DNA of 64,000 nucleotides from an uncultured Gammaproteobacteria bacterium (GCA_964612595.1 CAZTFB010000002.1:6663-70662), one strand, 5' to 3'. Shown: positions 15,931 through 54,334, counted from the stretch's first letter. Notes: generated from the sequence alone by a model not told the origin. Made by a program: numbers and translations.

Positions 15931-15996
15931 TGAGAACTCTATTATAGCAGAAAAGGGCTACATTCATCGAAGTTCAAGGCAGTTAAAAGTAGGTGT

Positions 15997-16032
15997 GGTC
16001 TGGGGCGAGCGAACTTGTCGCCGCCCCAGACC
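15997..16032 (-). terminator. GC-rich hairpin 3' of the cassette A ORF
   Basis: GGTCTGGGGCG (15997-16007) pairs with CGCCCCAGACC (16022-16032). Confidence 0.55.
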
Positions 16033-16049
16033 GTGCACCTCATATCGCG

Positions 16050-16766
16050 TCAGGGCAAGAAGCGCTTGAGCTTGTCGACCAAACTCTTTCTTCCTTCTTC
16101 TTCCAGGAGACGCTCGACGATCGCCGCTTCGTCCTCACCCTCTTGCGAGAGCCCATTGTAGCGATCAGTCATAGTTACAAAGTCCGCCTCCCAGAGAAAG
16201 AAGATCTCGTTTCCGTCACAAGGCGTACCGGCGGTCTGTGTGCCATTCGGGTCGTAGCTCACCAGAACACGGCCATCAGTCGTATGAGCGATCTCATAGA
16301 CCTTGGCGCCTGGATTGGTGCCACAAACTTCCCCGTATGGAGCACCCGGATTGACGATGTCGACCCAGGACCACTCAGGTACGAACTGTACGCGTGGATG
16401 AACTGATCGGCCTTCATGAAGCAGCCTTTCAACCTCAGCCTTCTGACGGGTGCGGCGAGTAACTTCCGCCTCGTAGCGCTTCGTCATGGACTTATAGTCT
16501 TTGACATCGAGGAAAAACAGCTCCTCACCGTCACAAGGCGTACCGGCGGTCTCGCTGCCCAGGTAACGAACCAGCACTCGCGCGCCGGATCGACCGATGA
16601 GCTCGACCGTATTCCCGAACTGAATGCCGCAAGTTTCACCCTCGGGCACACCGGGGTTGACGATGTCGACCCAGGACCATTCCGCCACAGTGGCGGTAAT
16701 CGGAAGAGTCGGTTGAACGACGGGACCGCGCAGAAGCGCGGCAGCCAATACGATCATAGGGAACAT
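16050..16766 (-). CDS. Cassette A: secreted protein built from two ~100-aa tandem repeats, no family assignment
   Basis: High-GC ORF 16050..16796. AGGAGG lies 6 nt before the ATG at 16766. Signal-like MFPMIVLAAALL. Repeats EWSWVDIVNPG..GE.CG...RVLV.Y...AGTPCDG.E.FF occur twice. Confidence 0.7.
   Translation of the reverse strand: MFPMIVLAAALLRGPVVQPTLPITATVAEWSWVDIVNPGVPEGETCGIQFGNTVELIGRSGARVLVRYLGSETAGTPCDGEELFFLDVKDYKSMTKRYEAEVTRRTRQKAEVERLLHEGRSVHPRVQFVPEWSWVDIVNPGAPYGEVCGTNPGAKVYEIAHTTDGRVLVSYDPNGTQTAGTPCDGNEIFFLWEADFVTMTDRYNGLSQEGEDEAAIVERLLEEEGRKSLVDKLKRFLP
16213..16680. repeat. Internal tandem duplication (period about 306-315 nt) inside the cassette A ORF
   Basis: CCGTCACAAGGCGTACCGGCGGTCT occurs at 16213 and 16528. 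TTGACGATGTCGACCCAGGACCA occurs at 16351 and 16657. Confidence 0.85.
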
Positions 16767-16779
16767 GGACAGCCTCCTG

Positions 16780-16866
16780 TTGTGCACTGATTTCACACTA
16801 CTCGATGTAGTGTGGCGGAATTTATAGCAAGAAATAATTTCGTACTAAAATTCCGCCAGTGCACAA
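16780..16866 (-). promoter_or_regulatory. Three-way-junction leader RNA abutting the SD of cassette A
   Basis: P1 16780-16789/16857-16866 (10 bp), P2 16794-16801/16807-16814 (8 bp), P3 16815-16823/16848-16856 (9 bp). The SD starts 1 nt after P1. Confidence 0.45.
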
Positions 16867-16891
16867 ATGCGATATGTAAGGTGCGAATGTA

Positions 16892-16920
16892 ATTCTAGCA
16901 GAAATACTATAGGTTGTCAA
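16892..16920 (-). promoter_or_regulatory. Near-consensus promoter driving cassette A
   Basis: Minus strand TTGACA (16915-16920), 17-nt spacer, TAGAAT (16892-16897). Confidence 0.55.
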
Positions 16921-16940
16921 GTTGGCCTAGGAAAGATGCC

Positions 16941-17159
16941 CTACACTCTGAAGATTTGTTCGAGAAGTTTATCAATTTTAGCCTTGTTTTTTCCTGAGGC
17001 TTCACCAAGCTCTTCTTTTAGTACCAACATGCCAATCTTTGTAAGTGCTTCGCGTGCCGCGAGGATTTGTTGTACGACGTCGCCGCTCTTTCTCTTACTA
17101 TTTATCATGCGACGAATTCCCTCGATTTGACCTACAAGTCGATTTATGCGTGTGTCCAT
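16941..17159 (-). CDS. CsoR/RcnR-fold (DUF156-like) small repressor lacking Cys/His ligands
   Basis: INRLVGQIEGIRRMINSKRKSGDVVQQILAAREAL aligns to RL.RIEGQ.RG..RM......C.D...Q..A...AL, with the Cys position occupied by Ser. Confidence 0.55.
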   Translation of the reverse strand: MDTRINRLVGQIEGIRRMINSKRKSGDVVQQILAAREALTKIGMLVLKEELGEASGKNKAKIDKLLEQIFRV

Positions 17160-17164
17160 ATAAG

Positions 17165-17188
17165 AAGACCGTAACCTGACTAGGTTCG
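17165..17188 (+). repeat. REP copy a: AAGACCGTAACCT-gact-AGGTTCG
   Basis: 5-bp stem AACCT/AGGTT. Lies between the csoR-like gene and the RAYT gene. Confidence 0.7.
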
Positions 17189-17234
17189 CTAACTTAATAA
17201 GATCTTAACATTAATGCTATACAATTTCCACACT

Positions 17235-17846
17235 ATGCCATCACGACATGAGCGAAAGGAATTTGTTGTTGGAGGAATCTACCACATATATAACCGTGGC
17301 ATAAATAAAATGGAAATATTTCACAGTGTTAGTGATTACGCATACTTTGAGAGAGGTCTAATTATGTATTTGAGCACAGCAAATGAGCTATACCCTGCTC
17401 TACAGCGATCAACACTCCCAATGGATGCTACCCATCTTTTACTCCTGCTTCGCAGGGCGTCCCAACAGAAAAACTATGCTAACGAGATAAAGCTCTTAGC
17501 CTTTTGCTTTATGCCAAATCACTTTCATCTTCTTATACAACAGAGTGGTGAACGCTCCATTTCAAAATTCATGAAATCGCTTCAAACTAGTTATGCAATG
17601 AGTTATGGGAAGAAATATAAGCACATAGGACCACTATTCCAGTCACGCTACAAAGCAATTCATGTCAAAAATGACATATACTACAAAACCGTTCTAAATT
17701 ACATCCACAACAACCCGGCTGAACTTAAACTTTTTAAAAAAATCCCAGAGAAATACCCATGGTCAAGCTTGAGTGATTATGTTGGCAATCGAAAGCGAAG
17801 TTGGATAGTGAAAGAAACGAACCTCGAAAGGTTACGGTCTTCTTAG
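17235..17846 (+). CDS. REP-associated tyrosine transposase (RAYT, IS200/Y1 HUH family)
   Basis: HUH motif MPNHFHLLIQ and catalytic-Tyr region LNYIHNNPAE. ORF 17214..17846, with the start at MPSRHERKEF. Confidence 0.8.
   Translation: MPSRHERKEFVVGGIYHIYNRGINKMEIFHSVSDYAYFERGLIMYLSTANELYPALQRSTLPMDATHLLLLLRRASQQKNYANEIKLLAFCFMPNHFHLLIQQSGERSISKFMKSLQTSYAMSYGKKYKHIGPLFQSRYKAIHVKNDIYYKTVLNYIHNNPAELKLFKKIPEKYPWSSLSDYVGNRKRSWIVKETNLERLRSS
17818..17844 (-). repeat. REP copy b (inverted): CGAACCT-cgaa-AGGTTACGGTCTTCTT
   Basis: Overlaps the convergent stop codons of the RAYT and gdhA genes. Confidence 0.7.
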
Positions 17847-19231: not shown

Positions 19232-19259
19232 GGCGCCTCGGGTTTTATCCCGAGGCGCC
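19232..19259. terminator. GC-rich hairpin 3' of the cassette B operon
   Basis: GGCGCCTCGGG-ttttat-CCCGAGGCGCC. There is a T-run on the plus side only. Confidence 0.5.
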
Positions 19260-19300
19260 AGGTTTTTGGAGTATTCAGTTGTACCCCAGCGCTGTGCAGG

Positions 19301-20185
19301 CTAGCTTGCTTCGTTGCCCTCCTGCGCAAACACTTGCGGGGTTTGGGGGTCGACTACCTGACCGACCCCCAGCCAGTCCCCGGCGGTACCAGGGTCGCGA
19401 CCATCGAACCAGACCAGTATCGAGTTGGGGTCGGTCACATCGAGTCCGCCGGCCAGGGCCAGGACGTGGGCCACCCGGACGGATTCCGGGAAGTATGCGC
19501 CTTCGTCACTAGTTACCCATTGTGAGTTGCCGATGGTCGATACGACCCATTCGCCGCCCACCGTATTAAGGCGAAACGGTGTGCGATCAACCGCGACAGA
19601 GGCGTCGTTGAGTCTCGCGCTCATGGACCTGCCGTAGGCTTTCGCAGCCGTATACATCTCATCCCGTTCTGCCGCCGTGTACTCGTATCGCTTCAACAGC
19701 AACCAACTCGGCTTCGCACCGTCGGTGAGTGAAAGCTGCACGAGCATGAAACCGCCGCCCTCACCTTGGGGATCGTCATCCATCGGGTGAAGCTCAGCAC
19801 CATCGAACTTCTGATCACCTTGAGAAGGGTCGTGAGTCCACTCCTCACCTGCCGCATGGCGCAACTCCTTGATGAGATACGCCGCAACCACGGTAAAGAT
19901 CGTACCGAGGATCTCAACATGATCGCCATAGACAAGCCTCTTCAGACGCTTCGATGCCCGTGCCAGTCTCGTGGGTCGATCCTGCGGCGGGTCGGCTTCC
20001 TCAACAATGACCTCCTCAGGCTCGGTAGTCAGGAGGTACACTGTAAGGAGCCGCTTCACCTCCTTTGAAAAGGGGCTCTCGGGGCGGGTTTTGACCCACC
20101 AGTAGACGAAGATGATGGCGCCGGCACTCGCACCTAGGGTAGCGAGCGCAAGGCCCAACAGATTGAACCCGAAGGTCATAGACAT
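19301..20185 (-). CDS. Cassette B gene 2: membrane protein with a C-terminal globular domain, no family assignment
   Basis: High-GC. AAGGAGG lies 8 nt before the ATG at 20185 and overlaps the stop of gene 1. TM segment FGFNLLGLALATLGASAGAIIFVYWWV. The ORF-track start at 20308 is an out-of-context extension. Confidence 0.65.
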   Translation of the reverse strand: MSMTFGFNLLGLALATLGASAGAIIFVYWWVKTRPESPFSKEVKRLLTVYLLTTEPEEVIVEEADPPQDRPTRLARASKRLKRLVYGDHVEILGTIFTVVAAYLIKELRHAAGEEWTHDPSQGDQKFDGAELHPMDDDPQGEGGGFMLVQLSLTDGAKPSWLLLKRYEYTAAERDEMYTAAKAYGRSMSARLNDASVAVDRTPFRLNTVGGEWVVSTIGNSQWVTSDEGAYFPESVRVAHVLALAGGLDVTDPNSILVWFDGRDPGTAGDWLGVGQVVDPQTPQVFAQEGNEAS

Positions 20186-20198
20186 GTCCTGTTCCTCC

Positions 20199-22082
20199 TT
20201 ATGGGAACGCGTCGTAGTTGTTACGACTGGGTGAGCTGAACGAGTCGTAGTTGCTGCGCGATGGGCTCGTGTAACTACTGCCCCCGCCACAACAACTTCC
20301 ACCGCCACCGTAGTCGTAACTACGGTTCATCTGTTCCTGGAGCTGTTGAGCTCTCTCGGCCGCTTCACGCGCTTCCCGAGCAGCTCGCTCCTGTTCCTGT
20401 CGCTGACGCTCGATCTCGGCTTGGCGAGCACGCTCTCTTCGAGCCATCTCTTCGTCGTAGTCGACTTGAGCGTTCCTGCCTGCGCTACGAGCTTCGACTG
20501 CTGCGCGCTGTGCGCGATCAACAGCCGGTTCGAACCACCGATCCGCAGCAAAGCCCTCACCTTCGTGGAGCAGTGCTTGTGCGCTCGATAGTCCACTCAC
20601 CGCCCTAGGGCTGTAACCAGCGAACATGCTGACCGGCCCCTGGGCCGACGAAATGGCTGACTGAGCTCCGGAACGAGCTCCCGGCCACGATGCACGAGCA
20701 GCTTCAAGCTTGGCTTGCAACGAACTGACCGCTTCATCAGCAGCTTTGGCTTCCGCTAGGTTTGCCAATGCTTTACGACCTTCGTTCTGAGCCTCTTTGA
20801 ACTGCTGCTCGGCACGGAAACGGTTCACTTTGATTAGCTGGGTGGTGACGATCTCGATGGTCACCTTGACATTGTAGACGTTGTTGGCGACCTGAGACCA
20901 CGTGGATTCATTGTGCTGCGCAGCAAGCACAGCAAGGTCGGCTCTGGCTCGACCGTTGAGCCCTTGAACCTCGCTAATACCGCTTTGCAGTTGCTCTGTG
21001 ATCAGAGCCGATTCCTCGTCGGCTGCAATCTGAGCGTCCACTTCGACATCGGCTGCTTCCGCGGTGGACTTGGCAGTCTGAGCCACCTCATACACACCTA
21101 CGAAATCAACCTTTCCTACTGCTCGAATAGCCTGCCAACCGCCTTGCGAATGCGCCTTCGCCTGAGCGAGCAATGAACTCGCGACGCTCAGTGCTTTGTC
21201 CAGCTCGTACCCACGGTTATGGACTACGGTCTGAATGTGCCTTTCAGCAGAGGCAATCGCTTGATCGGCCAGCAGAAGTGTGGGCTGGGCTTCTCGACGA
21301 GCCGTCGTGAGCCGGTCTACGTTCGCACGAGCTCCCACGACGGCATCATTCTGATTGCTCAGAGCTTCGCTAATCTGTGGGATGAGCTCGAGCGCCCTGG
21401 CGGGATTACCGATCCCCGACTGATCATCGGCTTCCGGCAAGAGACTGAGCGCCTCTGCCATAAGCTCGTCAATCGTCGATGCTTGCACGTCGATGGCTTC
21501 GATCTCTTGGCGGATGGGATCCAACCGACTATCCGGATACTCCCTGCTTTCCACCTCAAAATGCTTTTCCATCTCGTACCGAGCACCGCTAATGCCAAGG
21601 AGAAGCTTGTCCCTCTCCGCAAGCTCCGAACGGGCAAGTTCGCGACTAGCCTCAGCATCTGTGATGATAACTGAGGCAGCCTTGAGCAGCTCCTTCGCCT
21701 CACTGAGCTTGTTTCGTCCTGTGGATGCAGCTGAAATAGCCTGATCCAGGTTTGAAGTCCCCTTCGCGATAGCCAGCTCCCCTTGTGCCTCCGAAACCTT
21801 GGCATTCACCGCGCTGAGTTGGGTATCGAAGCGATCCGAATACGATTGTGCGTACCACTGATCGACCTCCTCCCACCTCAGATTCACGGTGTTTGCCGCA
21901 GCAACTTCGGCATTGATTCCATTCGTGAGCGATGTGATGCTGCGCTCACGAATCTGTGTCGGTACGGTGGTGACATACAGTCCACTCACCATAACCGACA
22001 AAGACAGAGCTAGGGCCAGACCGAGACGGGTCGGTGTTTTCACGACCTCATCCATAAGCCTGGCAAGGTTTTGAGTTGTCAA
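20199..22082 (-). CDS. Cassette B gene 1: membrane-anchored long Ala/Glu/Gln-rich coiled-coil protein with a Gly/Ser/Cys tail
   Basis: GAAGGAGG lies 6 nt before the TTG at 22082; the alternative ATG is at 22055. TM segment TRLGLALALSLSVMVSGLYV. The tail is ERQRQEQERAAREAREAAERAQQLQEQ...GGGGSCCGGGSS with SPSR(S/N)NYD(S/A)F twice. The part of the ORF above 22100 is AT-rich and probably non-coding. Confidence 0.65.
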   Translation of the reverse strand: MTTQNLARLMDEVVKTPTRLGLALALSLSVMVSGLYVTTVPTQIRERSITSLTNGINAEVAAANTVNLRWEEVDQWYAQSYSDRFDTQLSAVNAKVSEAQGELAIAKGTSNLDQAISAASTGRNKLSEAKELLKAASVIITDAEASRELARSELAERDKLLLGISGARYEMEKHFEVESREYPDSRLDPIRQEIEAIDVQASTIDELMAEALSLLPEADDQSGIGNPARALELIPQISEALSNQNDAVVGARANVDRLTTARREAQPTLLLADQAIASAERHIQTVVHNRGYELDKALSVASSLLAQAKAHSQGGWQAIRAVGKVDFVGVYEVAQTAKSTAEAADVEVDAQIAADEESALITEQLQSGISEVQGLNGRARADLAVLAAQHNESTWSQVANNVYNVKVTIEIVTTQLIKVNRFRAEQQFKEAQNEGRKALANLAEAKAADEAVSSLQAKLEAARASWPGARSGAQSAISSAQGPVSMFAGYSPRAVSGLSSAQALLHEGEGFAADRWFEPAVDRAQRAAVEARSAGRNAQVDYDEEMARRERARQAEIERQRQEQERAAREAREAAERAQQLQEQMNRSYDYGGGGSCCGGGSSYTSPSRSNYDSFSSPSRNNYDAFP

Positions 22083-22365
22083 GACATGCCTCCTTCTAGT
22101 AGGTTTGGCGACAGAATGAGTTGTTGGTTGATAAATTGAGAGTCTTGCGTGAGCAAGGCTGCAGCAAAAAGCACTAGATAAAAGCACGATCGAGCAACTA
22201 ATACTCTCAACTACAGCCTTGTTTACAAGTCTCGCAAATTTATATTTCTGAATACTCCAAATTTTCAATGTGCGCTCAATTTTATTGTGGCATGCAAATA
22301 GATACAATAAAAAATGAGCTCAACAATTATATACTATAGGCTTGGAAAAGTCAACTTTCCAGGCA

Positions 22366-24047: not shown

Positions 24048-24077
24048 ATTATACGTTGCGCCTCTACTGCTTGTCAA
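24048..24077 (-). promoter_or_regulatory. Consensus promoter for rho, giving a ~300-nt leader
   Basis: Minus strand TTGACA (24072-24077), 18-nt spacer, TATAAT (24048-24053). Confidence 0.55.
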
Positions 24078-24095: not shown

Positions 24096-24124
24096 TTGTC
24101 AAAAAAGTCATAGTGTGTTATACT
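24096..24124 (+). promoter_or_regulatory. Promoter driving cassette C
   Basis: TTGTCA (24096-24101), 17-nt spacer, TATACT (24119-24124). Confidence 0.5.
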
Positions 24125-24275
24125 ATCGGTCTTAACTTTCCTAGTATGATCGCACCATTAGTATCGCATTATTGTTGCTATTGTATTGGGAGTTGTACTT
24201 TGAAAAGGAGAGAGTTGAAAAATTATATGGGTCTCTGTTAAGGGAACTTTCTTGCATAGGGGGAAGGTATGTTGC

Positions 24276-24358
24276 GGGTACGCCAAATGACGTATCTGCA
24301 GCATGTCTTCCCTCTCCTGCACCGGAAGACCACCAATGAATTTTTCATTGGCGTACCC
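24276..24358 (+). promoter_or_regulatory. Structured leader of cassette C with mutually exclusive pairings
   Basis: P1 GGGTACGCCAA (24276-24286) pairs with TTGGCGTACCC (24348-24358). Inner hairpin 24305-24311/24324-24330. A competing hairpin CCAATGAA/TTCATTGG (24333-24351) overlaps the 3' strand of P1. Confidence 0.4.
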
Positions 24359-24407
24359 TTGCAGGGAACCCATTCGCCAGCGCAACCCCAAAGGAGACAG
24401 CGCAACC

Positions 24408-25499
24408 ATGTCCAAGCTGAATCGCATCGCCAAGTCCATCCTCGCGGCCGTCGCCATCATGGCGGTCACCATCCTCGCCGGCAACGCCGGCATCGCCAGT
24501 GCAGCGCCGGCCCAGCAGGCCATCGCCGCCAACGTCGCCTTGACCATCCCGGCCGCCCCCAACGTGGGCGGCAACTACGACGAGACGCCGGGCCAGAGCT
24601 GGGTGTGGCTGTACCGGGTCGCGGACCACAAGTCCTACACCGGTACCGTCGCGACCGCGCTCAAGAGCGGCATCGATGTTGGCAGCCCCGGGAACCACGA
24701 GCTCAAGCCGAACGGCAATCGCCTGTTCCGCGGGAGCGCGGACGCCGGCGATTACTTGTTCGTCGCTCACCTGGGCGCCAACACCGTCGTCATGGACAGC
24801 ATCGTCTCGGTCGCGAACGGCGACCAGTACGGCTCCAGCCAGACGGCGCAGGTCACCTGGAGCGGCACGTCCACGGGCATGAGCTCGTCGGCGCCGACCA
24901 AGCCGGTGACGGTCAAGGTTGCCAAGGCGGCGCCGGTCGTCCTGACCCCGCTCTGTTTGGCGATCCTGCCGCTGGCCAAGACCGGCGGCGCGACGTTCGT
25001 CATGTCCGGCGGGGTGTTCTCCGGCAAGGTCGCGTTCGTCCTCGCGACGAACACGTACGTCCTGTCCGTGGAGGCGGCCGAAGCGATGGTGAAGGCCGAC
25101 GGCGACAACGCCGTCATCGTGGACTTCACCGGAGTGCCCCTCGGCACGCCGGTGGAGATCCCGAGCGGCCCGTACCAGACCTTCACCATCGAGCCCAACG
25201 GGCGGCTGACGCCCCTGGGCTTCCTGAACGCGCCGCCGGTCGTCAAGCCCAACAACATCACGACCGACGCGGCGCTGAAGGGCTGGACGGAACGCGTGGC
25301 GCACACGGCGCTCAATCGGGCCAATGCCACGTGCCCGAAGTACGACACCAGCCTGCTCGCGGCCCATCCCGCCCGCACGGGCAGCGACGACTGGCCCGGC
25401 GGATTGCCGGGCATCGTGCTCGCGGGTATGGCCGGCATCGCGGCGCTCGCCTGGACGTTCTGGCCCCGGCGACGGCAGACGAACGTGACGTTCGCCTGA
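24408..25499 (+). CDS. Cassette C: secreted surface protein with a C-terminal sorting-signal-like anchor
   Basis: About 67% GC. AAGGAG lies upstream of the ATG at 24408. Signal peptide MSKLNRIAKSILAAVAIMAVTILAGNAGIASA. The C-terminus is HPARTGSDDWPGG-LPGIVLAGMAGIAALAWTFW-PRRRQ (motif, hydrophobic stretch, basic tail). There is an internal LAKTGG. Confidence 0.7.
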   Translation: MSKLNRIAKSILAAVAIMAVTILAGNAGIASAAPAQQAIAANVALTIPAAPNVGGNYDETPGQSWVWLYRVADHKSYTGTVATALKSGIDVGSPGNHELKPNGNRLFRGSADAGDYLFVAHLGANTVVMDSIVSVANGDQYGSSQTAQVTWSGTSTGMSSSAPTKPVTVKVAKAAPVVLTPLCLAILPLAKTGGATFVMSGGVFSGKVAFVLATNTYVLSVEAAEAMVKADGDNAVIVDFTGVPLGTPVEIPSGPYQTFTIEPNGRLTPLGFLNAPPVVKPNNITTDAALKGWTERVAHTALNRANATCPKYDTSLLAAHPARTGSDDWPGGLPGIVLAGMAGIAALAWTFWPRRRQTNVTFA

Positions 25500-25520
25500 G
25501 CCACGGACCTGCGCTGGTCA

Positions 25521-25552
25521 GGGCCGCCCTGGGGTCAAACCCAGGGCGGTCC
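25521..25552 (+). terminator. GC-rich hairpin 3' of cassette C
   Basis: CCGCCCTGGG-gtcaaa-CCCAGGGCGG. Confidence 0.55.
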
Positions 25553-25665
25553 GGCCGCACCACAATCGAATAAAAAAACGAGTGGTGAAGCCTCAACTCT
25601 CTCCGCTCGTTCCTTATGTAAAATACCTTTTGCATAAAGAACGAGTAGAACAACTAACTATATAT

Positions 25666-34393: not shown

Positions 34394-34436
34394 GGACCTC
34401 TATGTGTGGCGAACAACTCGCTCTACATAGAGGTCC
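34394..34436 (+). promoter_or_regulatory. 12-bp stem-loop in the cassette D leader
   Basis: GGACCTCTATGT (34394-34405) pairs with ACATAGAGGTCC (34425-34436). Confidence 0.35.
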
Positions 34437-34485
34437 CTATCCGAAATCCCGCGCAATCTTGCGCATCACCCATGGAGCCAAGTCT

Positions 34486-35778
34486 ATGAACGAAAAACGC
34501 ATAACGATTGGGATCTACATCATCGCACCTGTGGTGATGTTGTTAGCCAATCATTTCCTGAGGGGTGGCCAGGGGATCGGCGCACTCTCTCACGAAGAGC
34601 TTGAGGCGACGCTCTTCACAGCCTACCACTTGATTGCCTGGACGATCTGGCCTGAGGCTCGGTCTACCGGCTTTTGGTCAGGTGTTCACTGGTGGCGACA
34701 GCGGAGCATGAAGACGCTGATGTGGCTCACAGCACCCCTCGCACTACGAGGAGTGTCGATCTACATAGCTGCAAGTGTATTGGATCTCGATCATCCGACG
34801 ATCGTAGCCGGAGCACTTGTGGCAACAGATCCAGCGGCAGTCGGTCTCGCTCTAGGCCTCGTTGGCGAAGCCCGCTACCTTGCCGGTATGAGCTGGCAGC
34901 TGACCGTCGAAAGTCTCTACAACGACGTCATCGGCCTCTTCGTGATCGGTATCGGCATCGGCTTGACTGGGGCGATGCTCGGCGCTATGGTACTAATGAG
35001 TATCCTATACGGACTCATCTTGGCGATCGCGCTTGCCCTGGTCGCGGAAATCCTCCGCGTTGCTGGCCTTGCTCGCCGCCTCGAAGTACCTCTGCTCTCT
35101 GTCGTCATGCTCGCCGCCCTCTACTTCCTGAGCATACAGGGGAGCGTCTCGCCACTTTTCGTCTCAGTCATTGCTGCAAGTGGCTTTGACGTCCTCGACG
35201 CTGTGGTGCTTCGAAATCCTATTAATGGAGATCGTCACCACATTACTCACCAATGGGAATGGGCAAATCGCCTTGGCCTGGCGGGGATCCTCGGCCTCTA
35301 CGGATGGCTCCTCCCCTTGGCATCGATCAATGGCACAGTGTTCATGGGTTCACTTGCCCTGCTTGCCAGTATCGTGGCAACACGATTTCTGTCGGCCTAC
35401 GGCGAAGAACGTGGACAGCCCATCGTCGACAATGAGTCTGGCTTTGTCTATGGCAACGAGGTCAACAAGTTGATCTGGCTTGCCGGCTCGACTTGTTTGG
35501 GAGTTCCTATGCTAGGAGCGATCGAACTCTACGTAAAGGGTGATTCGTTAGCTGGCTCTATGGTTTTCACGACCATCGGGCTTTCACTTCTGTTGATCCC
35601 AGTAACCGTCCTCATGTTTGTGAGGACTGAGCAGAAGTTCGCTCCGCTCTTCGATAAAGCTCTCAACGCGTCGATGGCAACACCTGGCGTCACAAGGCTC
35701 GTCACTGCAGTTCGACGACGCCAGTCACGGAATCGAAAGGCAGATCATCCGGAGGTCCCTCACAACGACGACCGCTAA
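34486..35778 (+). CDS. Cassette D: divergent CPA1-like cation/proton antiporter
   Basis: About 60% GC. GGAG lies 8 nt before the ATG at 34486. VATDPAAVGLAL and VESLYNDVIGLFV parallel the TDP and ES..ND motifs of the neighbouring nhaP. Polytopic. Confidence 0.6.
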   Translation: MNEKRITIGIYIIAPVVMLLANHFLRGGQGIGALSHEELEATLFTAYHLIAWTIWPEARSTGFWSGVHWWRQRSMKTLMWLTAPLALRGVSIYIAASVLDLDHPTIVAGALVATDPAAVGLALGLVGEARYLAGMSWQLTVESLYNDVIGLFVIGIGIGLTGAMLGAMVLMSILYGLILAIALALVAEILRVAGLARRLEVPLLSVVMLAALYFLSIQGSVSPLFVSVIAASGFDVLDAVVLRNPINGDRHHITHQWEWANRLGLAGILGLYGWLLPLASINGTVFMGSLALLASIVATRFLSAYGEERGQPIVDNESGFVYGNEVNKLIWLAGSTCLGVPMLGAIELYVKGDSLAGSMVFTTIGLSLLLIPVTVLMFVRTEQKFAPLFDKALNASMATPGVTRLVTAVRRRQSRNRKADHPEVPHNDDR

Positions 35779-35799
35779 CTAGCGGTTCACAATCGAATA

Positions 35800-35828
35800 G
35801 AGGGACACACGTGCGCCGTGTTTCCCTC
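35800..35828 (+). terminator. Hairpin 3' of cassette D
   Basis: GAGGGACACACG-tgcgc-CGTGTTTCCCTC, 11 of 12 positions paired. Confidence 0.45.
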
Positions 35829-35847
35829 ACCTGATATACTAGTACTC

Positions 35848-36876
35848 ATGGCACTCGTTATTCTTGATCCAGACCAAGGCTCCCACACTAGTCGTCATCG
35901 AGGAGGCGGTCGATTTCTTCAGATGCTGCATGAGAATTTATCAGATGAGGCAACATTTATTGCTGACGTCGACCACGTTAAAGAAGGCGATACCCTACTC
36001 GTACCGTTTTGGCATCCATATCGACCTGCATCTGTAAAAAAACGCTATGCAAAGCGCCAAATTCTCACCATATTCGACGTCATTCCCTTTAAATACCCCG
36101 ACAAATTCCCCATCGGCTTCAAAGGAAAACTAAACTTGATAGAAAATCTCAATAGCATGCATCACTTTGACGAATTCATCACAATTTCTGAAGCTTCAAA
36201 AACCGACATTGTACAGTATTTGAATATTGAGCCAGATAAGATCCATGTAGTTCATCTCACCTCAAGTTCGCCGTTCTTTTCCCAAAAAACAACTGAAAAA
36301 AAGTCCAACATTGACTATATTGAGCCACCCAACCTCCCCTATTGCATCTATGTTGGTGATGTAAATTGGAACAAAAATATCGTCAATATTGCACGGGCCC
36401 TTAAGATTGCCCACATTAAGGGAGTTTTTGTCGGTAAAGCTTTTACAGAAGAATATGTAGATATGGATCATCCTGAAAGAGCAGAAATTAAGGCGTTTAG
36501 ACAAGAGGTAGGCAACGATAATGACGAACTTTTTATGTTTCCCGGCTACCTTTCAGATGAAAACCTGATTACATTCTATAAGAATGCACTGTGTAATGTT
36601 CTCGTTTCTCGGGATGAGGGTTTTGGTTTATCCTATCTGGAGGCCTCAAGCCAACATTGCCCTTCGATATTAAGTGATATCGATGTGTTTAATGAGGTAG
36701 CAGATGATGCAGCGATATTCGCTCAAAGTAACGATCCACAGTCTATTGCACAAAAAATTGTGCGGCTTAGGGATGATAAGACTTTTGCGAAAGAGCTTGG
36801 CAATAAGGCGTATAAACGATCAATGATGTTTAAACCAGCAACATTTAAGAAGGAACTCACATCATGGATATTCTAA
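35848..36876 (+). CDS. GT4/GT1-type glycosyltransferase
   Basis: C-terminal RDEGFGLSYLEA (the EX7E region). TATACT lies 7 nt before the ATG at 35848. Confidence 0.75.
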   Translation: MALVILDPDQGSHTSRHRGGGRFLQMLHENLSDEATFIADVDHVKEGDTLLVPFWHPYRPASVKKRYAKRQILTIFDVIPFKYPDKFPIGFKGKLNLIENLNSMHHFDEFITISEASKTDIVQYLNIEPDKIHVVHLTSSSPFFSQKTTEKKSNIDYIEPPNLPYCIYVGDVNWNKNIVNIARALKIAHIKGVFVGKAFTEEYVDMDHPERAEIKAFRQEVGNDNDELFMFPGYLSDENLITFYKNALCNVLVSRDEGFGLSYLEASSQHCPSILSDIDVFNEVADDAAIFAQSNDPQSIAQKIVRLRDDKTFAKELGNKAYKRSMMFKPATFKKELTSWIF

Positions 36877-38060: not shown

Positions 38061-38127
38061 GGAGAGCATTATACCTAATAGAATGAAGGAGCCGTGGGGG
38101 TCGGCTCCCTTTTCGACGGCCGAGCCG

Positions 38128-38340
38128 TCAATCCCAGACCGAACCCCTAAAGGCGGCTGCGACGAGGTTGGCGGCATTTGCATCCCCGATATTGCTGAAA
38201 TCGGGAAAGATAACGCCTTGCTGTCGCTGGGATTCAATCTGGCCTGGATCGATCTTAATGTACCGCGAGCCATCTGGCCGTCGCCACACTTCATAAGGCA
38301 TGCCCCAATAGTTGGAGCTCGCTTCGAGCACTTCGTTCAT
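38128..38340 (-). CDS. Cassette E: 70-aa soluble protein, no family assignment
   Basis: GGGAG lies 6 nt before the ATG at 38340. Sequence MNEVLEASSNYWGMPYEVWRRPDGSRYIKIDPGQ... GC is elevated relative to the flanks. Confidence 0.5.
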   Translation of the reverse strand: MNEVLEASSNYWGMPYEVWRRPDGSRYIKIDPGQIESQRQQGVIFPDFSNIGDANAANLVAAAFRGSVWD

Positions 38341-38425
38341 ACCTGACTCCCTTCGATACAATAGATCACAACACTCCCCAAGGAACACGCGCTCCTCGTG
38401 TGTGATACGCTGTTACATGGCTCCC

Positions 38426-38434
38426 ATTATACCA
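38426..38434 (-). promoter_or_regulatory. Extended -10 TGGTATAAT upstream of cassette E
   Basis: Identical 9-mers occur at 41988-41996(-), 53458-53466(+) and 62532-62540(+). Confidence 0.45.
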
Positions 38435-40876: not shown

Positions 40877-40886
40877 ATGCTATTAT

Positions 40887-40958
40887 AACAAGACCGGGTC
40901 CTGTTTAAGGTCGTGCCCGATTAAAGAGGCACGATCCACAAGAAAACACGGTCTTGTT
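40887..40958 (+). promoter_or_regulatory. Closed stem structure directly abutting the rpiB start codon
   Basis: AACAAGACCG (40887-40896) pairs with CGGTCTTGTT (40949-40958). Inner hairpin TCGTGCC/GGCACGA. Confidence 0.3.
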
Positions 40959-41528
40959 ATGGTCATATATATCGGGGCTGATCATCGCGGATTTGAGCTA
41001 AAGAACCAATTGAGAGACTGGCTTATTGAACAAGGCCATAAGGTAGTCGATTGTGGCAACGACCACGCAGATGCCGAAGATGACTTTCCAGATTTTGCAC
41101 GAGCTGTTGCGCTGAAGATTGTTAAAAGCCATGAGCAAGACCGACCAGCCGATGAAGATACTGACCCTGGTGAAAACTTGGGTATAACGTCAACAAAAAG
41201 CCATATGTATGAGGGTGTTGCACGAGTGCCGAGCGAGGTTCAGAATGATATTCCTGTCGAAGATCACGAGCTCGGTATCTTAGTGTGCGGATCTGGAATT
41301 GGGGTTTGTATAACAGCAAACCGTTATAAAGGAATCCGCTGCGGCGCTGCGTACAGCGCCGAACATGCTCGACATGGTCGCGAGAACGATCATATAAATG
41401 TTCTTGGCCTCGCAGCAGATATGGTTGACTTTGAAAAAGCAAAAGAAATTACGCATACGTTCTTAAATGCCGCTCCTATCATGAAAGAAAAGTACATCCG
41501 CAGAGTGCGTAAGCACGATATGTATTAA
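40959..41528 (+). CDS. rpiB: Ribose-5-phosphate isomerase B with a ~40-aa acidic insertion
   Basis: IYIGADHRGFELK, GILVCGSGIG, RHGRENDHINVL. ORF 40836..41528, with the start at MVIYIG. Confidence 0.85.
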   Translation: MVIYIGADHRGFELKNQLRDWLIEQGHKVVDCGNDHADAEDDFPDFARAVALKIVKSHEQDRPADEDTDPGENLGITSTKSHMYEGVARVPSEVQNDIPVEDHELGILVCGSGIGVCITANRYKGIRCGAAYSAEHARHGRENDHINVLGLAADMVDFEKAKEITHTFLNAAPIMKEKYIRRVRKHDMY

Positions 41529-41546
41529 AACTTTTTTATGAGTGGA

Positions 41547-41577
41547 GTGCACCCCGGCGCAATGCGCCGGGGTGCAC
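41547..41577. terminator. Bidirectional GC hairpin shared by rpiB and cassette F
   Basis: GTGCACCCCGGCG...CGCCGGGGTGCAC. Confidence 0.6.
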
Positions 41578-41594
41578 GACACCTTTCGTCAACC

Positions 41595-41930
41595 CTACCT
41601 GACCCTTTTGTGCGAAAGCGCTCCTCCGCTGCGCATTTCCTCCTGTGAGTGCTCCGCACACAGGCTCGAATCGCCTCCCAGTCCAGGCGTATAAAACGCA
41701 CGGTGGGTTGCCTTCTTATTACAGAAGGCACACTTGGTGGATCCTCCACCATTGCCCATGAAGCGTGGGATATACTTCAAGGCAAGATAGAGACCGCCTC
41801 CGATCAGAAGGAACGGCAAGATCGTCTGGAAGACACCGCCCAGCGTGCTGAGCAATCCTTCCAGTGGCGCCTGCTGCGGGACGAGCTCTTCATCCACCTG
41901 CAGCAAGATCGACATGATGATACCGAACAT
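41595..41930 (-). CDS. Cassette F: small membrane protein with a C-terminal Cys/His (zinc-ribbon-like) tail
   Basis: AGGAGG lies 5 nt before the ATG at 41930. TM segment ILPFLLIGGGLYLALKYI. Tail CAFCNKKATH...LCAEH. Confidence 0.6.
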   Translation of the reverse strand: MFGIIMSILLQVDEELVPQQAPLEGLLSTLGGVFQTILPFLLIGGGLYLALKYIPRFMGNGGGSTKCAFCNKKATHRAFYTPGLGGDSSLCAEHSQEEMRSGGALSHKRVR

Positions 41931-41987
41931 GTGAGCCTCCTGCCCATATGGGCCTTCTTAAGAACGAAAGGTGCGTAGGAACACTCT

Positions 41988-41996
41988 ATTATACCA
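41988..41996 (-). promoter_or_regulatory. Extended -10 TGGTATAAT upstream of cassette F
   Basis: Followed in the leader by the perfect palindrome GCCCATATGGGC (41942-41953), which directly abuts the SD. Confidence 0.45.
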
Positions 41997-46145: not shown

Positions 46146-46174
46146 TTGACAAGCTCAAAAAAAAGGACTATACT
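46146..46174 (+). promoter_or_regulatory. Consensus promoter TTGACA-N17-TATACT
   Basis: TTGACA 46146-46151 and TATACT 46169-46174. It fires into the terminator about 20 nt downstream. Confidence 0.45.
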
Positions 46175-46195
46175 GTCTTATAGTAATTTAAAAAG

Positions 46196-46226
46196 AATCA
46201 GCGAAGGCTGATTTTTTTCTTTTTTA
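46196..46226 (+). terminator. Canonical intrinsic terminator
   Basis: AATCAGC-gaag-GCTGATT followed by TTTTTTCTTTTTT. Confidence 0.75.
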
Positions 46227-46387
46227 AAGGGGTTGGACAAACTGTTTGTAACGAAAAGTGAGTCTGAGTCACATTTTTCGCTATAAAGAGCTTGCTCAGC
46301 TCCTTCCCCAGAGACCTGGGGTTGGTCCTTTGAAAATCGATGTCGGATTGAGCAAACCGACAACCGCTGCAAGAAGGAGACCCTCAC

Positions 46388-46597
46388 ATGCAGCCATCAA
46401 CCACCTCGGTGCCGCAAGGCACGCCCATCGTGGTCGATCAACCGCCTGCGCGGTTGGTCGAAGGAGCGGCCGCTGCTCCCCGACGAACGCTCGCCCTGCA
46501 CATCGGCTCAGCGCCGCGGTTCGCTCTTGGTGGGCATCGTGGTCGACGCGCATCGGCGCGCGTTGACTATGCCTGTCGTATGGGCGGCATGAGGTAG
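46388..46597 (+). CDS. Cassette G1: 69-aa basic/Ala-Arg-rich protein, no family assignment
   Basis: AAGGAG lies 8 nt before the ATG at 46388. About 73% GC. The coding frame is uncertain because all frames are open. Confidence 0.35.
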   Translation: MQPSTTSVPQGTPIVVDQPPARLVEGAAAAPRRTLALHIGSAPRFALGGHRGRRASARVDYACRMGGMR

Positions 46598-46656
46598 CCG
46601 CGTGTGCGGTCGAAGTGGCGCTGCGCCACGTAGACCGCTAATGCGGTAGTGCGTTT

Positions 46657-46684
46657 GGGCGGCCCGGGATATCCCGGGCCGCCC
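46657..46684 (+). terminator. Perfect 28-nt GC palindrome 3' of G1
   Basis: GGGCGGCCCGGGAT|ATCCCGGGCCGCCC, then TACTTTCTTT. Confidence 0.6.
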
Positions 46685-46710: not shown

Positions 46711-46739
46711 TTGACACATTCCTCTGATATTTATATACT
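46711..46739 (+). promoter_or_regulatory. Consensus promoter TTGACA-N17-TATACT driving G2
   Basis: TTGACA 46711-46716 and TATACT 46734-46739. Confidence 0.5.
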
Positions 46740-46853
46740 TACACCATCTTTTACATTGTCCATTGGCCCTTTCTATATAAAACACTCCCACATGATATTA
46801 CGTTTTGTATAGCAAGGGCTGATTGACGCCCGTTTTTGTGAGCAGTAACAATT

Positions 46854-47102
46854 GTGTGCTCACATGACACGGAGGATGCCACATTGGCACCGAGGAACGA
46901 CTGGGCCAATCCGAGGAACGGCGATGGTTTCGGGGCGAACCCCCGGGGAGAGAGCCGCGGTGGGCGTAATCTGTCGCCCGCCGACCCTTCCACTGGGCAG
47001 CCGCTGCCCACTCTGGAGCCCACTGGTGTGTGTGCGGACTACTGGACAACGCGCCAGGGTGAAGCCCTGAGTGATGCCGGCAGCGAGGACGAGGAGGAAT
47101 AA
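46854..47102 (+). CDS. Cassette G2: small acidic-tailed protein with NPRN/NPRG repeats, no family assignment
   Basis: High GC3 in this frame. The start may be the TTG at 46884, which follows GGAGGA. The C-terminal tail is SDAGSEDEEE. The rival frame 46852..47070 is not excluded. Confidence 0.35.
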   Translation: MCSHDTEDATLAPRNDWANPRNGDGFGANPRGESRGGRNLSPADPSTGQPLPTLEPTGVCADYWTTRQGEALSDAGSEDEEE

Positions 47103-47128
47103 GTCAAGTCCTCCAAGCTCGTCCTCAA

Positions 47129-47164
47129 CCCGACCTCTGGAGCCTACGCGCTCCGGAGGTCGGG
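47129..47164 (+). terminator. GC hairpin 3' of G2
   Basis: CCCGACCTCTGGAGC-ctacgc-GCTCCGGAGGTCGGG (one mismatch). Confidence 0.55.
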
Positions 47165-47222
47165 ATCCTACTTCCCCCTTCTCGATAAGAATTATTTAAT
47201 ACATCTTCGCTAGAATTTCCTT

Positions 47223-48825: not shown

Positions 48826-48884
48826 GTGGACATTATAGCACCTTCGTGCTTGAGGGTCAGTCTGTAACGTGGTATGCTGAAGGT

Positions 48885-52308: not shown

Positions 52309-52309
52309 T

Positions 52310-53395: not shown

Positions 53396-53400
53396 CTGAT

Positions 53401-53445
53401 AAGCCCGCGGCACAATCCAGCTCTGGGCTGAAACTGGGTCGTGTC
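53401..53445. repeat. Repeat family 2, copy iii (AAGCCCGCGGC ... GGGTCGTGTC with a 24-nt insert)
   Basis: Shares both arms with copies at 14805 and 62501. Confidence 0.4.
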
Positions 53446-53457
53446 AATTCCTAAAAA

Positions 53458-53466
53458 TGGTATAAT
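53458..53466 (+). promoter_or_regulatory. Extended -10 TGGTATAAT upstream of cassette H
   Basis: Lies in AT-rich DNA about 300 nt upstream of the first H sORF. Confidence 0.45.
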
Positions 53467-53567
53467 ATGGGCAATTTATTTTTTGGTACGTGTGTTGTAC
53501 GAAAGCATGTATTACCCACGTGCCTTGCACTTTTTCATATTTAGAAGGCAATGAATGTTACATAGTT

Positions 53568-53740
53568 GAGAGCCCTTCCAACGAGGTTGTGTCCTATGCG
53601 GATGTGATCTAGTCGGAAGGGCTCTCTGAAGGTGTCGTTAGCCATCAGAAGTCCAACCACAGTCCCTGCACGGGGCTGGGGGGCGACCCGCGTTGGGGCA
53701 GCACCCCCCGAGTCTGTGAAACGATAGCAGCCTCGGGGGG
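53568..53740 (+). promoter_or_regulatory. Highly structured GC-rich leader of cassette H
   Basis: 12-bp stem GAGAGCCCTTCC (53568-53579) with GGAAGGGCTCTC (53615-53626). 9-bp stem CCCCCCGAG (53704-53712) with CTCGGGGGG (53732-53740). Confidence 0.4.
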
Positions 53741-53769
53741 TGTCCCCACCCATCAAAGGAGTTGTTCGC

Positions 53770-53922
53770 ATGGCAGGACCACCACTGATCGATCCGTCTG
53801 ATCGCAGCACCTGGCCGGACTCGGACGACGAACTCGACGAGGAGGAGCTAAAGTACGCTCCGCCGGCAACTGGCCCCTGGGAACCACAGGGAGAGGAGGA
53901 TGTTCGTGTCCGAACCGAATGA
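53770..53922 (+). CDS. Cassette H sORF1: 50-aa acidic Pro/Trp-containing peptide
   Basis: AAGGAG lies 8 nt before the ATG at 53770. Sequence MAGPPLIDPSDRSTWPDSDDELDEEELKYAPPATGPWEPQGEEDVRVRTE. Confidence 0.45.
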   Translation: MAGPPLIDPSDRSTWPDSDDELDEEELKYAPPATGPWEPQGEEDVRVRTE

Positions 53923-54058
53923 CTGGCCGACGCCGGCCGCGGCCGATCCGAACGGGTGGGGACCCGGCAAGCCGCCGCCCCCGCAGACGTGGGACGACCT
54001 CTCACCACGCATCGGCTCCGACGAAGAGCCAGGAGGTGTGGGAGAAGGTCCGTTCTGA
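53900..54058 (+). CDS. Cassette H sORF2: 52-aa acidic Pro/Trp-rich peptide (below the ORF-track cutoff)
   Basis: My translation is MFVSEPNDWPTPAAADPNGWGPGKPPPPQTWDDLSPRIGSDEEPGGVGEGPF. GC3 is very high, a purine-rich GGGAGAGGAGG lies upstream, and it overlaps sORF1 by 23 nt. Confidence 0.4.
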   Translation: MFVSEPNDWPTPAAADPNGWGPGKPPPPQTWDDLSPRIGSDEEPGGVGEGPF

Positions 54059-54168
54059 TCGACATCTTCCGCAGCTGCTGTTAAGCCGGATATGTCGGTA
54101 AACTGCAGCTGCCCGCTGCCCACAACTCAGTGGAGGGGGGCTTGCTGAGTAGTGGGGCAGCATTTGCC

Positions 54169-54210
54169 CAGAGGCGGCCCTGGTACTGACCAGGGCCAGG
54201 GCCGCCTCTG
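54169..54210 (+). terminator. 15-bp GC hairpin 3' of cassette H
   Basis: CAGAGGCGGCCCTGG pairs with CCAGGGCCGCCTCTG. Confidence 0.55.
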
Positions 54211-54243
54211 CGGTCTATTTGACGACATTCATTGTCTTAAAAA

Positions 54244-54289
54244 GGCTGGCGGACCAGGAACCAACATTTATTTGTCCTGGCCGCCAGCC
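54244..54289 (+). terminator. Second long GC hairpin before dprA
   Basis: GGCTGGCGGACCAGGA pairs with TCCTGGCCGCCAGCC (one bulge). Confidence 0.45.
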
Positions 54290-54334
54290 CATTTCCATAA
54301 TTTATTCTTAATCTTCTCCTGCTACACTCGCCTT

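Follow-up and report, generated by a model that had tools for sequence, protein, structure and literature searches.

The DNA analysed here is a stretch of 64,000 nucleotides (CAZTFB010000002.1, positions 6663-70662, assembly GCA_964612595.1, deposited as an uncultured Gammaproteobacteria bacterium), referred to below as the window. Its backbone includes the housekeeping genes rho, gdh, trpS, fmt, a mur ligase gene, ychF, tatD, rpiB, rpe, the PBP2 gene, metG, dprA and dus, and further genes for an M23 peptidase, a CsoR-like repressor and large orphan surface proteins. A genome search with Rho gave Candidatus Roizmanbacteria and other Microgenomates metagenome-assembled genomes (MAGs) as the nearest relatives, and the backbone is assigned by these sequence relationships to Ca. 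Roizmanbacteria (Microgenomates, Candidate Phyla Radiation (CPR)), an uncultured group known here only from metagenome assemblies. A metagenome scan with YchF returned only distant relatives (≤65% identity). Nine GC-rich cassettes (A to F, G1, G2 and H), carrying 11 open reading frames (ORFs), lie in the spacers of this AT-rich backbone. They are of different ages, and in the oldest, C, the G+C content of third codon positions (GC3) has stayed high through speciation and domain exchange.

A two-state hidden Markov model (HMM) on GC content, made alongside a 400-nt profile, divided the window into a backbone of 39–44% GC and ten high-GC segments, nine of which are the cassettes. The corresponding islands are located at 15992-16746 (A, 58% GC), 19232-22034 (B, 58%), 24259-25561 (C, 68%), 34557-35912 (D, 56%), 38088-38425 (E, 57%), 41544-41954 (F, 58%), 46294-46684 (G1, 65%), 46870-47178 (G2, 66%) and 53572-54213 (H, 64%). 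All nine are intergenic, and their neighbours are intact with complete Pfam domains. GC3 is 0.57–0.70 in most cassette ORFs and 0.91 in C, as compared with 0.34–0.40 in backbone genes. The non-coding DNA of the islands is also GC-rich (0.53–0.77, as compared with 0.27–0.43 in backbone spacers); hence, the GC shift is regional. A preliminary description of this DNA, made from the sequence alone, had reported nine GC-rich units in the spacers of an AT-rich backbone with intact flanking genes, and the HMM and the domain searches confirm it almost to the base. The GC3 comparison that it proposed sets the cassettes clearly apart from the backbone, and its backbone range of 33–45% GC, taken from 60-nt counts, has to be replaced by the HMM values.

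In 64 Microgenomates relatives, the DNA around Rho (1.09 Mb in total) gave 0.27 islands per 10 kb with the same HMM, as compared with 1.4 per 10 kb in the window and 2.3 per 10 kb inside 15990-54290. Islands of 55–73% GC in backbones of ~40% GC were seen in L081 (3935-6886) and L058 (2363-4199) (Microgenomates, Levybacteria), where they code for signal-peptide or transmembrane (TM) proteins. GC-rich genes for envelope proteins may be more widespread in the Microgenomates class.

The junctions of all nine islands were reproduced at 98–100% identity in Logan contigs, retrieved by exact-protein look-ups, from 14 runs belonging to ~9 accession series (SRR15237799, SRR15237800, SRR15237813, SRR15237815, SRR15237816, SRR29243453, DRR774217, SRR35845086, SRR22392799, SRR22392800, SRR24315801, SRR24315803, SRR26809237 and SRR32799350). 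The cassette proteins gave no match in Pfam, NCBIfam, PHROGs or PADLOC, and scans of IMG/VR with A, B2, C and D returned no relatives. The products are, as described before, orphan proteins that are secreted, located in the membrane, or small and acidic. For none of the cassettes did the searches reveal a high-GC donor; in the large protein database they are valid for cassettes other than D to H. Comparison between strains and between relatives covered A, B, C, E, F, G1 and G2.

The cassettes and the backbone also carry different signals for translation initiation. A Shine-Dalgarno (SD) site containing GGAG precedes 9 of the 11 cassette ORFs but only 1 of 44 backbone genes (Fisher p=8e-8). Its spacing is 3–13 nt at eight cassette ORFs and in Hb it abuts the ATG directly; B1 has no SD, and that of G2 counts only if TTG 46884 is the start. 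Thus, the SD sites claimed in the preliminary description (10 of 11 ORFs, 5–11 nt before the start) are present for most ORFs at a wider spacing, and the lack of SD sites that it saw at backbone operon heads holds for 43 of the 44 backbone genes, the remaining one having a GGAG motif. In the 25 nt 5′ of 42–44 backbone starts, a TATAAT-like box was found 4–10 nt before the start in 15 of 44 genes, as compared with 4.2% of all ATGs (p=4e-10). As backbone starts lack an SD and have a close TATAAT-like box, the backbone appears to be largely leaderless. Starts of this type are found, for example, at 38060 (dus), 38597 (ychF), 40876 (tatD), 48825 (metG) and 27791 (trpS). One genome would then combine two regimes of translation initiation, with leaderless core genes and SD-led accessory genes. 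No publication tying Patescibacteria to leaderless or SD usage was found.

Among the best -35/-10 consensus matches between 15 and 55 kb (11–12 of 12 positions), four of the top six precede A, B1, G1 and G2, and the remaining two precede Rho and CsoR; the C promoter matches at 10 of 12 positions. The extended -10 element TGGTATAAT was found four times, with 0.64 expected, and three of the copies sit before E, F and H. These data bear out the near-consensus promoters described before A, C, G1 and G2, to which B1 (TTGACT-17-TATAAT) can be added, as well as TGGTATAAT before E, F and H, and support the view that foreign-looking units are driven by backbone-type promoters in AT-rich DNA. The rho promoter (24048-24077, minus strand; TTGACA-18-TATAAT, 12/12) is divergent from the C promoter and lies ~300 nt 5′ of the rho start, so that rho has a long leader, whereas the neighbouring genes are leaderless.

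Hairpins of 9–15 bp follow the units at a distance of 17–66 nt, except in H, where a 15-bp stem lies ~110 nt past the Hb stop. The terminal hairpin of D is weak (7 bp), and so the GC-rich hairpin of 10–15 bp that had been ascribed to every unit is present in most. Most cassette hairpins lack a U-tract, whereas a U-tract is present in terminators of the backbone, for example downstream of PBP2 and Rho. No sequence common to the hairpins of the cassettes was found. SD sites and I-shaped hairpins without a U-tract are typical of high-GC bacteria.

Cassette C (24096..25561, plus strand) begins with the promoter TTGTCA-17-TATACT at 24096-24124, and its ORF (24408-25499; GC3 0.91) is preceded by the SD AAGGAG and followed by a 13-bp terminal hairpin (25521-25552). 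The predicted product of 363 amino acids (aa), rich in Ala, Gly, Thr and Val, has a signal peptide, two β-rich domains and a C-terminal TM anchor; an AlphaFold model built from 5 sequences was poor, with a predicted local distance difference test (pLDDT) score of 44.5. The plus-strand frame was identified by GC3 periodicity, gene callers having chosen an antisense ORF (24345-25367). Public Logan calls carry this Arg-rich antisense ORF on the minus strand, so that the true C protein is absent from exact-match indexes. Gene calling in low-GC MAGs may systematically fail on high-GC genes in this way, and genes like C are probably under-reported owing to antisense mis-annotation.

The 5′ untranslated region (UTR) of C includes an element of ~150 nt (24194-24345, plus strand) with a 25-bp hairpin and an outer stem. 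Copies are present in L005 (9010-9164, minus strand), L085 (659-809), L088 (479-634), L087 (4-154), L197 (1820-1971, minus strand) and L200 (1127-1243). The element is nearly invariant in relatives whose backbone silent sites are saturated, and its few substitutions preserve pairing. Six G-U pairs in the 25-bp hairpin indicate that the fold is specific to the plus strand. It occurs once per genome fragment, at the C locus only and at no other cassette, and has no credible match in Rfam. It may be a regulatory or processing element.

A word-indexed search of 5.8 billion proteins recovered four homologues of C (82, 46, 42 and 41% identity), and an exhaustive HMMER profile search of 1.84 billion representative proteins recovered eight relatives in all. 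Members whose context was checked always lie 5′ of an orphan-orphan-TrpRS block or beside an AT-rich gene. With the contigs fetched for C (L085/L086, L087, L088/L089, L198/L199, L200, L005 and L197), syntenic orthologues were identified in seven relatives, giving eight alleles in the same Rho...TrpRS synteny. Low-GC orthologues in synteny had been named in the preliminary description as evidence that would refute its reading; for C the outcome was the opposite, as all syntenic orthologues are high-GC. Their GC3 is 0.82–0.96, as compared with 0.21–0.44 in neighbouring genes, and A+T make up 0.04–0.12 of 4-fold sites in the six alleles for which this was counted. Where the amino acid is conserved, pairs of alleles agree at the third base with a frequency of 0.53–0.65 (0.69 for L088/L005), close to the 0.50–0.54 expected at saturation under the codon usage of each gene. 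Backbone TrpRS is saturated too (window versus L085, 0.32, with 0.29 expected). The silent sites of C are thus near saturation yet occupied by G or C everywhere, which indicates near-complete turnover and fits neither recent import nor passive amelioration.

The C alleles are domain mosaics. Among the eight alleles, the N-terminal domain of C from the window is nearest to that of L088 (60–75%) and the C-terminal domain to that of L085 (58–78%). The C-terminal domain of L088 is in turn nearest to that of L005 (60–100%), and the N-terminal domains of these two are unrelated. L087, which comes from another project, is 97–100% identical to the window on both sides of a segment (24301-24775) across which identity is 52–75%, with indels; this segment covers the variable part of the C leader and the N-terminal third of C. 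No silent paralogue of C or of its variant segment was found in the 64-kb window.

Cassette A (15992..16920, minus strand) includes the promoter TTGACA-17-TAGAAT (16892-16920), the SD AGGAGG 6 nt before ATG 16766, an ORF (16050-16766) for a secreted protein of 238 aa with two internal repeats (EWSWVDIVNPG...AGTPCDG), and a 12-bp hairpin (15997-16032). It was found at 99–100% identity in Logan contigs of at least nine runs and is missing in L197 and L006. In L005, the A site holds a different island of 309 bp (60% GC) with a 79-aa ORF.

Cassette B (19232..22354, minus strand) has two genes downstream of the promoter TTGACT-17-TATAAT (22326-22354). B1 (20199-22055), the ORF without an SD, encodes an Ala-rich coiled-coil protein of 618 aa with an N-terminal TM helix, and B2 (19301-20185; SD AAGGAGG) a 294-aa protein with one TM helix; an 11-bp hairpin (19232-19259) follows. 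A GCGCCTCGG arm is present at both B ends. It was rejected as a shared end motif because it is not enriched, the 9-mer having 11 matches with 7.6 expected. B is lacking in L005 and L006, in which the Rho-GDH spacer is ~45 and 32 nt, respectively, and comparison with the empty site in relatives revealed no target duplication at the B junctions.

The GTDB genome closest to the window is L005, whose Rho has 92% aa identity and which has a 67% GC island at the C site. L006 carries Rho-GDH-CsoR-M23 with spacers of 32–76 nt (CsoR-M23 76 nt), an arrangement taken, from gene order and spacer length, as the ancestral empty state. L008, L009 and L010 hold other contents in the Rho-GDH spacer, which is hence a hotspot; genes for 617 aa and 310 aa found there in L009 were rejected as homologues of B1 and B2, being similar in size only. 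L197 (~85% nucleotide identity) has counterparts of both B genes (B1′ and B2′) and an island of 67–70% GC at the C site, lacks A, and has the csoR-like and Y1 transposase genes inverted.

When the window is compared with L197, 4-fold sites are identical at a fraction of 0.71 in B1 and 0.65 in B2, as compared with 0.65 in Rho, 0.55 in GDH and 0.49 in M23, and aa identity is 83–84% for the B proteins and 97–99% for Rho, GDH and M23. As the silent divergence of B is like that of its flanks, B was present in the common ancestor with L197 and has co-diverged with them, encoding fast-evolving proteins. When single-nucleotide polymorphisms (SNPs) between the window and strain L171 were polarised with L197 as outgroup, B showed 15 GC>AT and 6 AT>GC changes, and GDH plus Rho 42 and 35, respectively. 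These small numbers are suggestive of slow amelioration of B toward AT. A and B are therefore cassettes that are absent at syntenic sites in relatives, and C occurs in each of the seven close relatives. Empty sites, which the preliminary description had proposed to look for, as well as sites with other contents, were thus found for the Rho-GDH and CsoR-M23 spacers.

Two further cassettes resemble A and B in composition. Cassette D (34486..35912, plus strand) has a GGAG SD, a leader hairpin at ~34395-34437 and the weak 7-bp hairpin at 35802-35824. Its ORF (34486-35778), for a polytopic membrane protein of 430 aa, lies directly 3′ of a native Na+/H+ exchanger gene (32382-34316, plus strand), to whose product it shows weak similarity in a CPA1-like TDP...ES..ND motif (E=0.07). 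D had no match in Pfam, PDB, plasmids or IMG/VR, and its protein may be a highly diverged duplicate or xenologue of the exchanger. The D junctions were recovered in 5 runs. Cassette F (41547..41996, minus strand) carries TGGTATAAT at 41988-41996, the SD AGGAGG 5 nt before ATG 41930, an ORF (41595-41930) for 111 aa with a TM helix and a Cys-rich tail, and a 14-bp hairpin (41547-41577), and is identical in strain L182. The backbone of strain SRR29243453 is 98–99% identical to the window, and the divergence of A, B and F in this strain is no higher than that of the backbone.

Cassettes E, G1 and G2 differ sharply between strains. E (38086..38434, minus strand) has TGGTATAAT at 38426-38434, an ORF (38128-38340) for 70 aa and a 9-bp hairpin (38086-38110) directly before the leaderless dus promoter. 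In strain SRR29243453, there are 112 differences per kb in E, as compared with 4–16 per kb in the flanks. They lie in the leader and the N-terminus, and the protein is identical from YWGMPYEVW to the end, which indicates that the E gene is real.

G1 (46146..46684, plus strand) consists of the promoter TTGACA-17-TATACT (46146-46174), the SD AAGGAG, an ORF (46388-46597) for 69 aa and a structured 3′ UTR with a final 12-bp hairpin (46657-46684). In L182, the ORF body (46370-46605) is swapped for an unrelated GC-rich ORF of 76 aa, with 100% of the promoter and >86% of the 3′ hairpins kept around the swap. G2 (46711..47178, plus strand) has the same type of promoter, TTGACA-17-TATACT (46711-46739), and a 15-bp hairpin (47129-47164). 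Its reading frame spans 46854-47102, and the likely start is TTG 46884 after GGAGG, giving a small acidic protein that ends in EDEEE. L182 differs in G2 by a 3-nt indel and by a stretch of ~70 nt that cannot be aligned, yet keeps the frame and stop; hence, G2 is coding and locally hypervariable. The conserved frame does not support a reading of G2 as a structured RNA.

H (53458..54213, plus strand), recovered in L180, begins with TGGTATAAT at 53458-53466, followed by a 12-bp leader hairpin (~53568-53630), two small ORFs that are predicted to be coding from their sequence, and a 15-bp hairpin (54169-54210), after which comes leaderless dprA (start ~54336). Ha (53770-53922, 50 aa; SD AAAGGAG) overlaps Hb (53900-54058, 52 aa), and both products are acidic and rich in Pro and Trp. 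G2 (46884-47102), Ha and Hb all encode small acidic proteins rich in Pro and Trp, in which the motifs NDW, WP and GPW recur; these may belong to a single family of short peptides that are secreted or intrinsically disordered.

Other features of the window include a Y1 (IS200/RAYT-like) transposase gene (Y1_Tnp; 17214-17846, plus strand) of normal GC, located between gdh and the csoR-like gene and between cassettes A and B. It is missing in L006 and present in L005; no repeated palindromes linked to it were seen. The orphan gene n568 (25582-27288, plus strand; 568 aa) lies 3′ of cassette C and is AT-rich (GC3 ~0.25). Its product has 69% identity to that of L085, and L005 encodes an unrelated protein of 485 aa at this position (6348-7805); n568 is a fast-turnover surface gene that is not GC-rich. 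The Pfam model of RpiB matched the homologue encoded at 40836-41528 (plus strand) in two stretches, apparently owing to an acidic insertion of ~60–80 aa near the N-terminus. The tenth segment called by the HMM (59944-60306, plus strand; 57% GC) was rejected as a tenth cassette, as it is a compositional domain, a Cys/Gly/Pro-rich module, inside an orphan ORF of 746 aa. No tRNA was detected in the window by ARAGORN and no RNA family at gathering level by Rfam, and domain searches found no integrase (tyrosine or serine recombinase, IntI) and no reverse transcriptase among the window proteins.

The reading that we favour, and hold to be about evenly balanced between right and wrong, is that the islands are real parts of the chromosome, namely accessory modules that were acquired at different dates and of which a hypervariable part is kept GC-rich by an ongoing force. 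Each module would be a complete leadered unit, comprising a sigma-70-type promoter in AT-rich DNA, a 5′ UTR often with a hairpin, an SD, an ORF or a pair of them and a GC-rich hairpin lacking a U-tract, and would fit precisely into the gap between a terminator and the promoter that follows it in the tightly packed, leaderless backbone. Modules would have been gained from sources richer in GC at spacer hotspots, where insertion harms nothing: A after the L197 split, B before the L197 split and after that of L005, and C before the split of all seven relatives, with vertical inheritance since then. The route of insertion was probably transformation with illegitimate recombination, dprA being present. 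A stable class (A, B and F, with D placed there by composition) of 56–58% GC would behave like ordinary old imports. The hypervariable class would comprise C, G1, G2, E and perhaps H, mostly of 64–68% GC (E 57%), and be marked by divergent segments with sharp edges, or by exchange of an entire ORF, when strains of 98–100% identity elsewhere are compared; C alleles would be exchanged as domain mosaics among species. That the most GC-rich cassettes are mostly the hypervariable ones is a hint from nine units.

In this account, the GC-richness of the hypervariable class would be actively maintained across the whole region, UTRs included. The most likely force would be frequent recombination of divergent alleles with GC-biased repair, i.e. 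GC-biased gene conversion (gBGC), to which we attach modest confidence by analogy with other bacteria; selection on DNA or mRNA appears less likely. There is a precedent in bacteria, where 11 of 14 groups show a raised GC3 in recombining genes (Lassalle et al. 2015, PMC4450053). A stronger form is put forward only tentatively, namely that a locus-specific GC-enriching force, either unusually strong gBGC at hypervariable hotspots of recombination or some targeted process of another kind, acts across whole regions and holds certain envelope genes at >90% G/C at silent sites. Cassette C, in a 41% GC genome and through speciation and domain shuffling, would be the model for such a force, and this is again somewhat doubtful. 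The products are likely to be cell-envelope or host-contact proteins under diversifying selection, as suggested by their sequence features and hypervariability.

Several points weigh against the favoured account. A donor was found for no cassette, and a foreign origin is argued from composition and signals alone. Published effects of gBGC in bacteria amount to a few GC3 points, as compared with a shift from 0.37 to 0.95 here, and backbone recombination patches in this DNA are without GC enrichment. The fast-evolving neighbour n568 is AT-rich, with a GC3 of 0.25. The SNP asymmetry in B (15:6) is a small sample. The valid search of the large protein database leaves out D to H, and the strain comparison leaves out D and H. 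The envelope or host-contact role is suggested by sequence features, the AlphaFold model of C (pLDDT 44) being poor.

A rather unlikely alternative, though one with evidence of its own, is an origin in situ: native, lineage-specific, fast-evolving genes would have arisen by duplication and divergence or de novo, with no donor, and their GC, SD sites and hairpins would have been made and kept locally by gBGC or by selection on leadered, structured mRNAs. Such an origin would explain why the context-checked members of the C family all occur in this CPR setting with no donor found, and why the GC3 of C persists through silent-site saturation. The CPA1-like motif of D beside the native Na+/H+ exchanger hints at a diverged duplicate, GC-rich islands for secreted or membrane proteins occur in other Microgenomates loci (L081 and L058), and an SD could be required by any leadered, structured mRNA in an otherwise leaderless genome. 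However, B shows a net GC>AT change, as for an import out of equilibrium, and A and B are missing from close relatives with tight empty spacers. The boundaries are abrupt, the units bring their own U-tract-less type of terminator, and other fast-evolving orphans (n568 and x870) are AT-rich. The preliminary description had suggested instead repeated, very recent acquisitions from high-GC, Actinobacteria-like donors, for example by an episymbiont taking host surface genes. The GC3 of C (0.91) and its Ala/Gly/Thr/Val-rich composition do resemble those of actinobacterial genes, the SD sites and U-tract-less hairpins have a general likeness to those of high-GC bacteria, and A is limited to the species of the window. 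A very recent date nevertheless fails for B, which is shared with L197 at flank-like silent divergence, and fails more strongly for C, with its seven syntenic high-GC orthologues and near-saturated silent sites; both are older than speciations with substantial or saturated silent divergence. The cassettes are fixed at 98–100% identity in samples of many projects, no homologue was found outside CPR contexts, and no actinobacterial donor emerged, the C family having eight relatives among 1.84 billion proteins with all checked contexts in CPR. We consider this scenario improbable.

A dedicated capture system, integron-like or of the Y1 IS200/RAYT type, that places hairpin-ended cassettes in spacers would be one form of the cassette-capture process that had also been envisaged. 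It would account for the strong hairpin that ends every unit, for the Y1_Tnp gene (17214-17846) between A and B, which is variably placed in relatives, and for the GCGCCTCGG arm at both B ends. The hairpins, however, share no att-like or other common sequence, and the count of the GCGCCTCGG 9-mer is near expectation (11 versus 7.6). The window encodes no tyrosine or serine recombinase and no IntI, the cassettes are dispersed with a promoter each, B was inserted without target duplication relative to the empty site, and the C leader is single-copy per genome fragment and not shared with other cassettes, all of which makes capture of this kind very improbable. An assembly chimera, contamination or an artificial construct would fit the sharp GC switches and the fact that some Logan contigs end inside C, B or G2, but every junction is crossed, with the same sequence, by assemblies made independently from many runs and projects, and the diverged relatives L005, L197, L085, L088 and L200 share the arrangement. 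This last explanation is practically excluded.

Compositional islands are usually read as recent, fading transfers, whereas here the oldest island, C, is the least faded. Persistence of GC3 >0.9 in a mosaic surface-protein gene through speciation is not predicted by ordinary gene-transfer theory, and the system would allow one to test whether the mutation bias of a whole bacterial genome can be overcome locally, by biased gene conversion or by some other force. It also marks hypervariable envelope proteins as likely determinants of host or phage contact in Roizmanbacteria. Genomic islands in Patescibacteria, with transfer mostly among Patescibacteria, have been reported (PMC12455944), and a hypervariable surface-protein gene is known in a Gracilibacterium (PMC6851277). 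No publication was found that describes SD-led modules staying GC-rich within a leaderless CPR backbone.

Bacterial orphan genes and islands are usually AT-richer than their host, whereas the cassettes are GC-richer than theirs. With acquired islets undergoing amelioration (Lawrence and Ochman), they share atypical composition, patchy presence, insertion between core genes and orphan content, and B shows the GC>AT excess. They differ in having no mobility genes, tRNA sites, repeats or found donors; the usual marks of a genomic island are lacking, with no tRNA and no integrase in the window and no duplication at the B junctions. With regard to amelioration with age, B has 15 GC>AT against 6 AT>GC changes, and C, the oldest cassette and the least ameliorated, shows no decay despite silent saturation. 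Phage morons have the same anatomy, namely their own promoter and terminator, deviant GC and a position between intact backbone genes, but the backbone here is one of housekeeping genes (rho, gdh, trpS, metG, ychF and dprA). No phage embedding or homologues were detected, as PHROGs gave no match and the IMG/VR scans with A, B2, C and D no relative.

Integron cassettes are likewise small ORF units of mostly unassigned function with a hairpin-forming end; the units described here differ in having no integrase, no attI/attC consensus, no tandem array and a promoter for each unit. A REP/RAYT system is not indicated, since Y1_Tnp is present but the hairpins are all different. A target of a diversity-generating retroelement was rejected, as the differences include indels and all base types; the window contains no reverse transcriptase domain and no internal repeat of the variable segments. 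With gBGC as described in bacteria (Lassalle et al. 2015, PMC4450053), the cassettes share the link between recombination and GC3, an effect that extends to non-coding DNA, and a rise of non-optimal G/C-ending codons. The magnitude here is far larger, with GC3 of 0.9 as compared with 0.37 for the genome, and only a few small loci are affected; the backbone genes that recombine show no enrichment.

Sites of antigenic variation, such as Borrelia vlsE, Treponema tprK and Neisseria pilE, differ from the cassettes in that the latter have no silent donor copies within 64 kb, that several unrelated loci are hit, and that the variation seen is between strains and species. The vlsE, tprK and pilE loci are GC-elevated relative to their genomes. 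The cassettes share with them a GC content above that of an AT-rich genome, conserved flanks and leader around a variable body, surface-type products, and, in C, G1 and G2, sharply bounded mosaic segments between near-identical strains.

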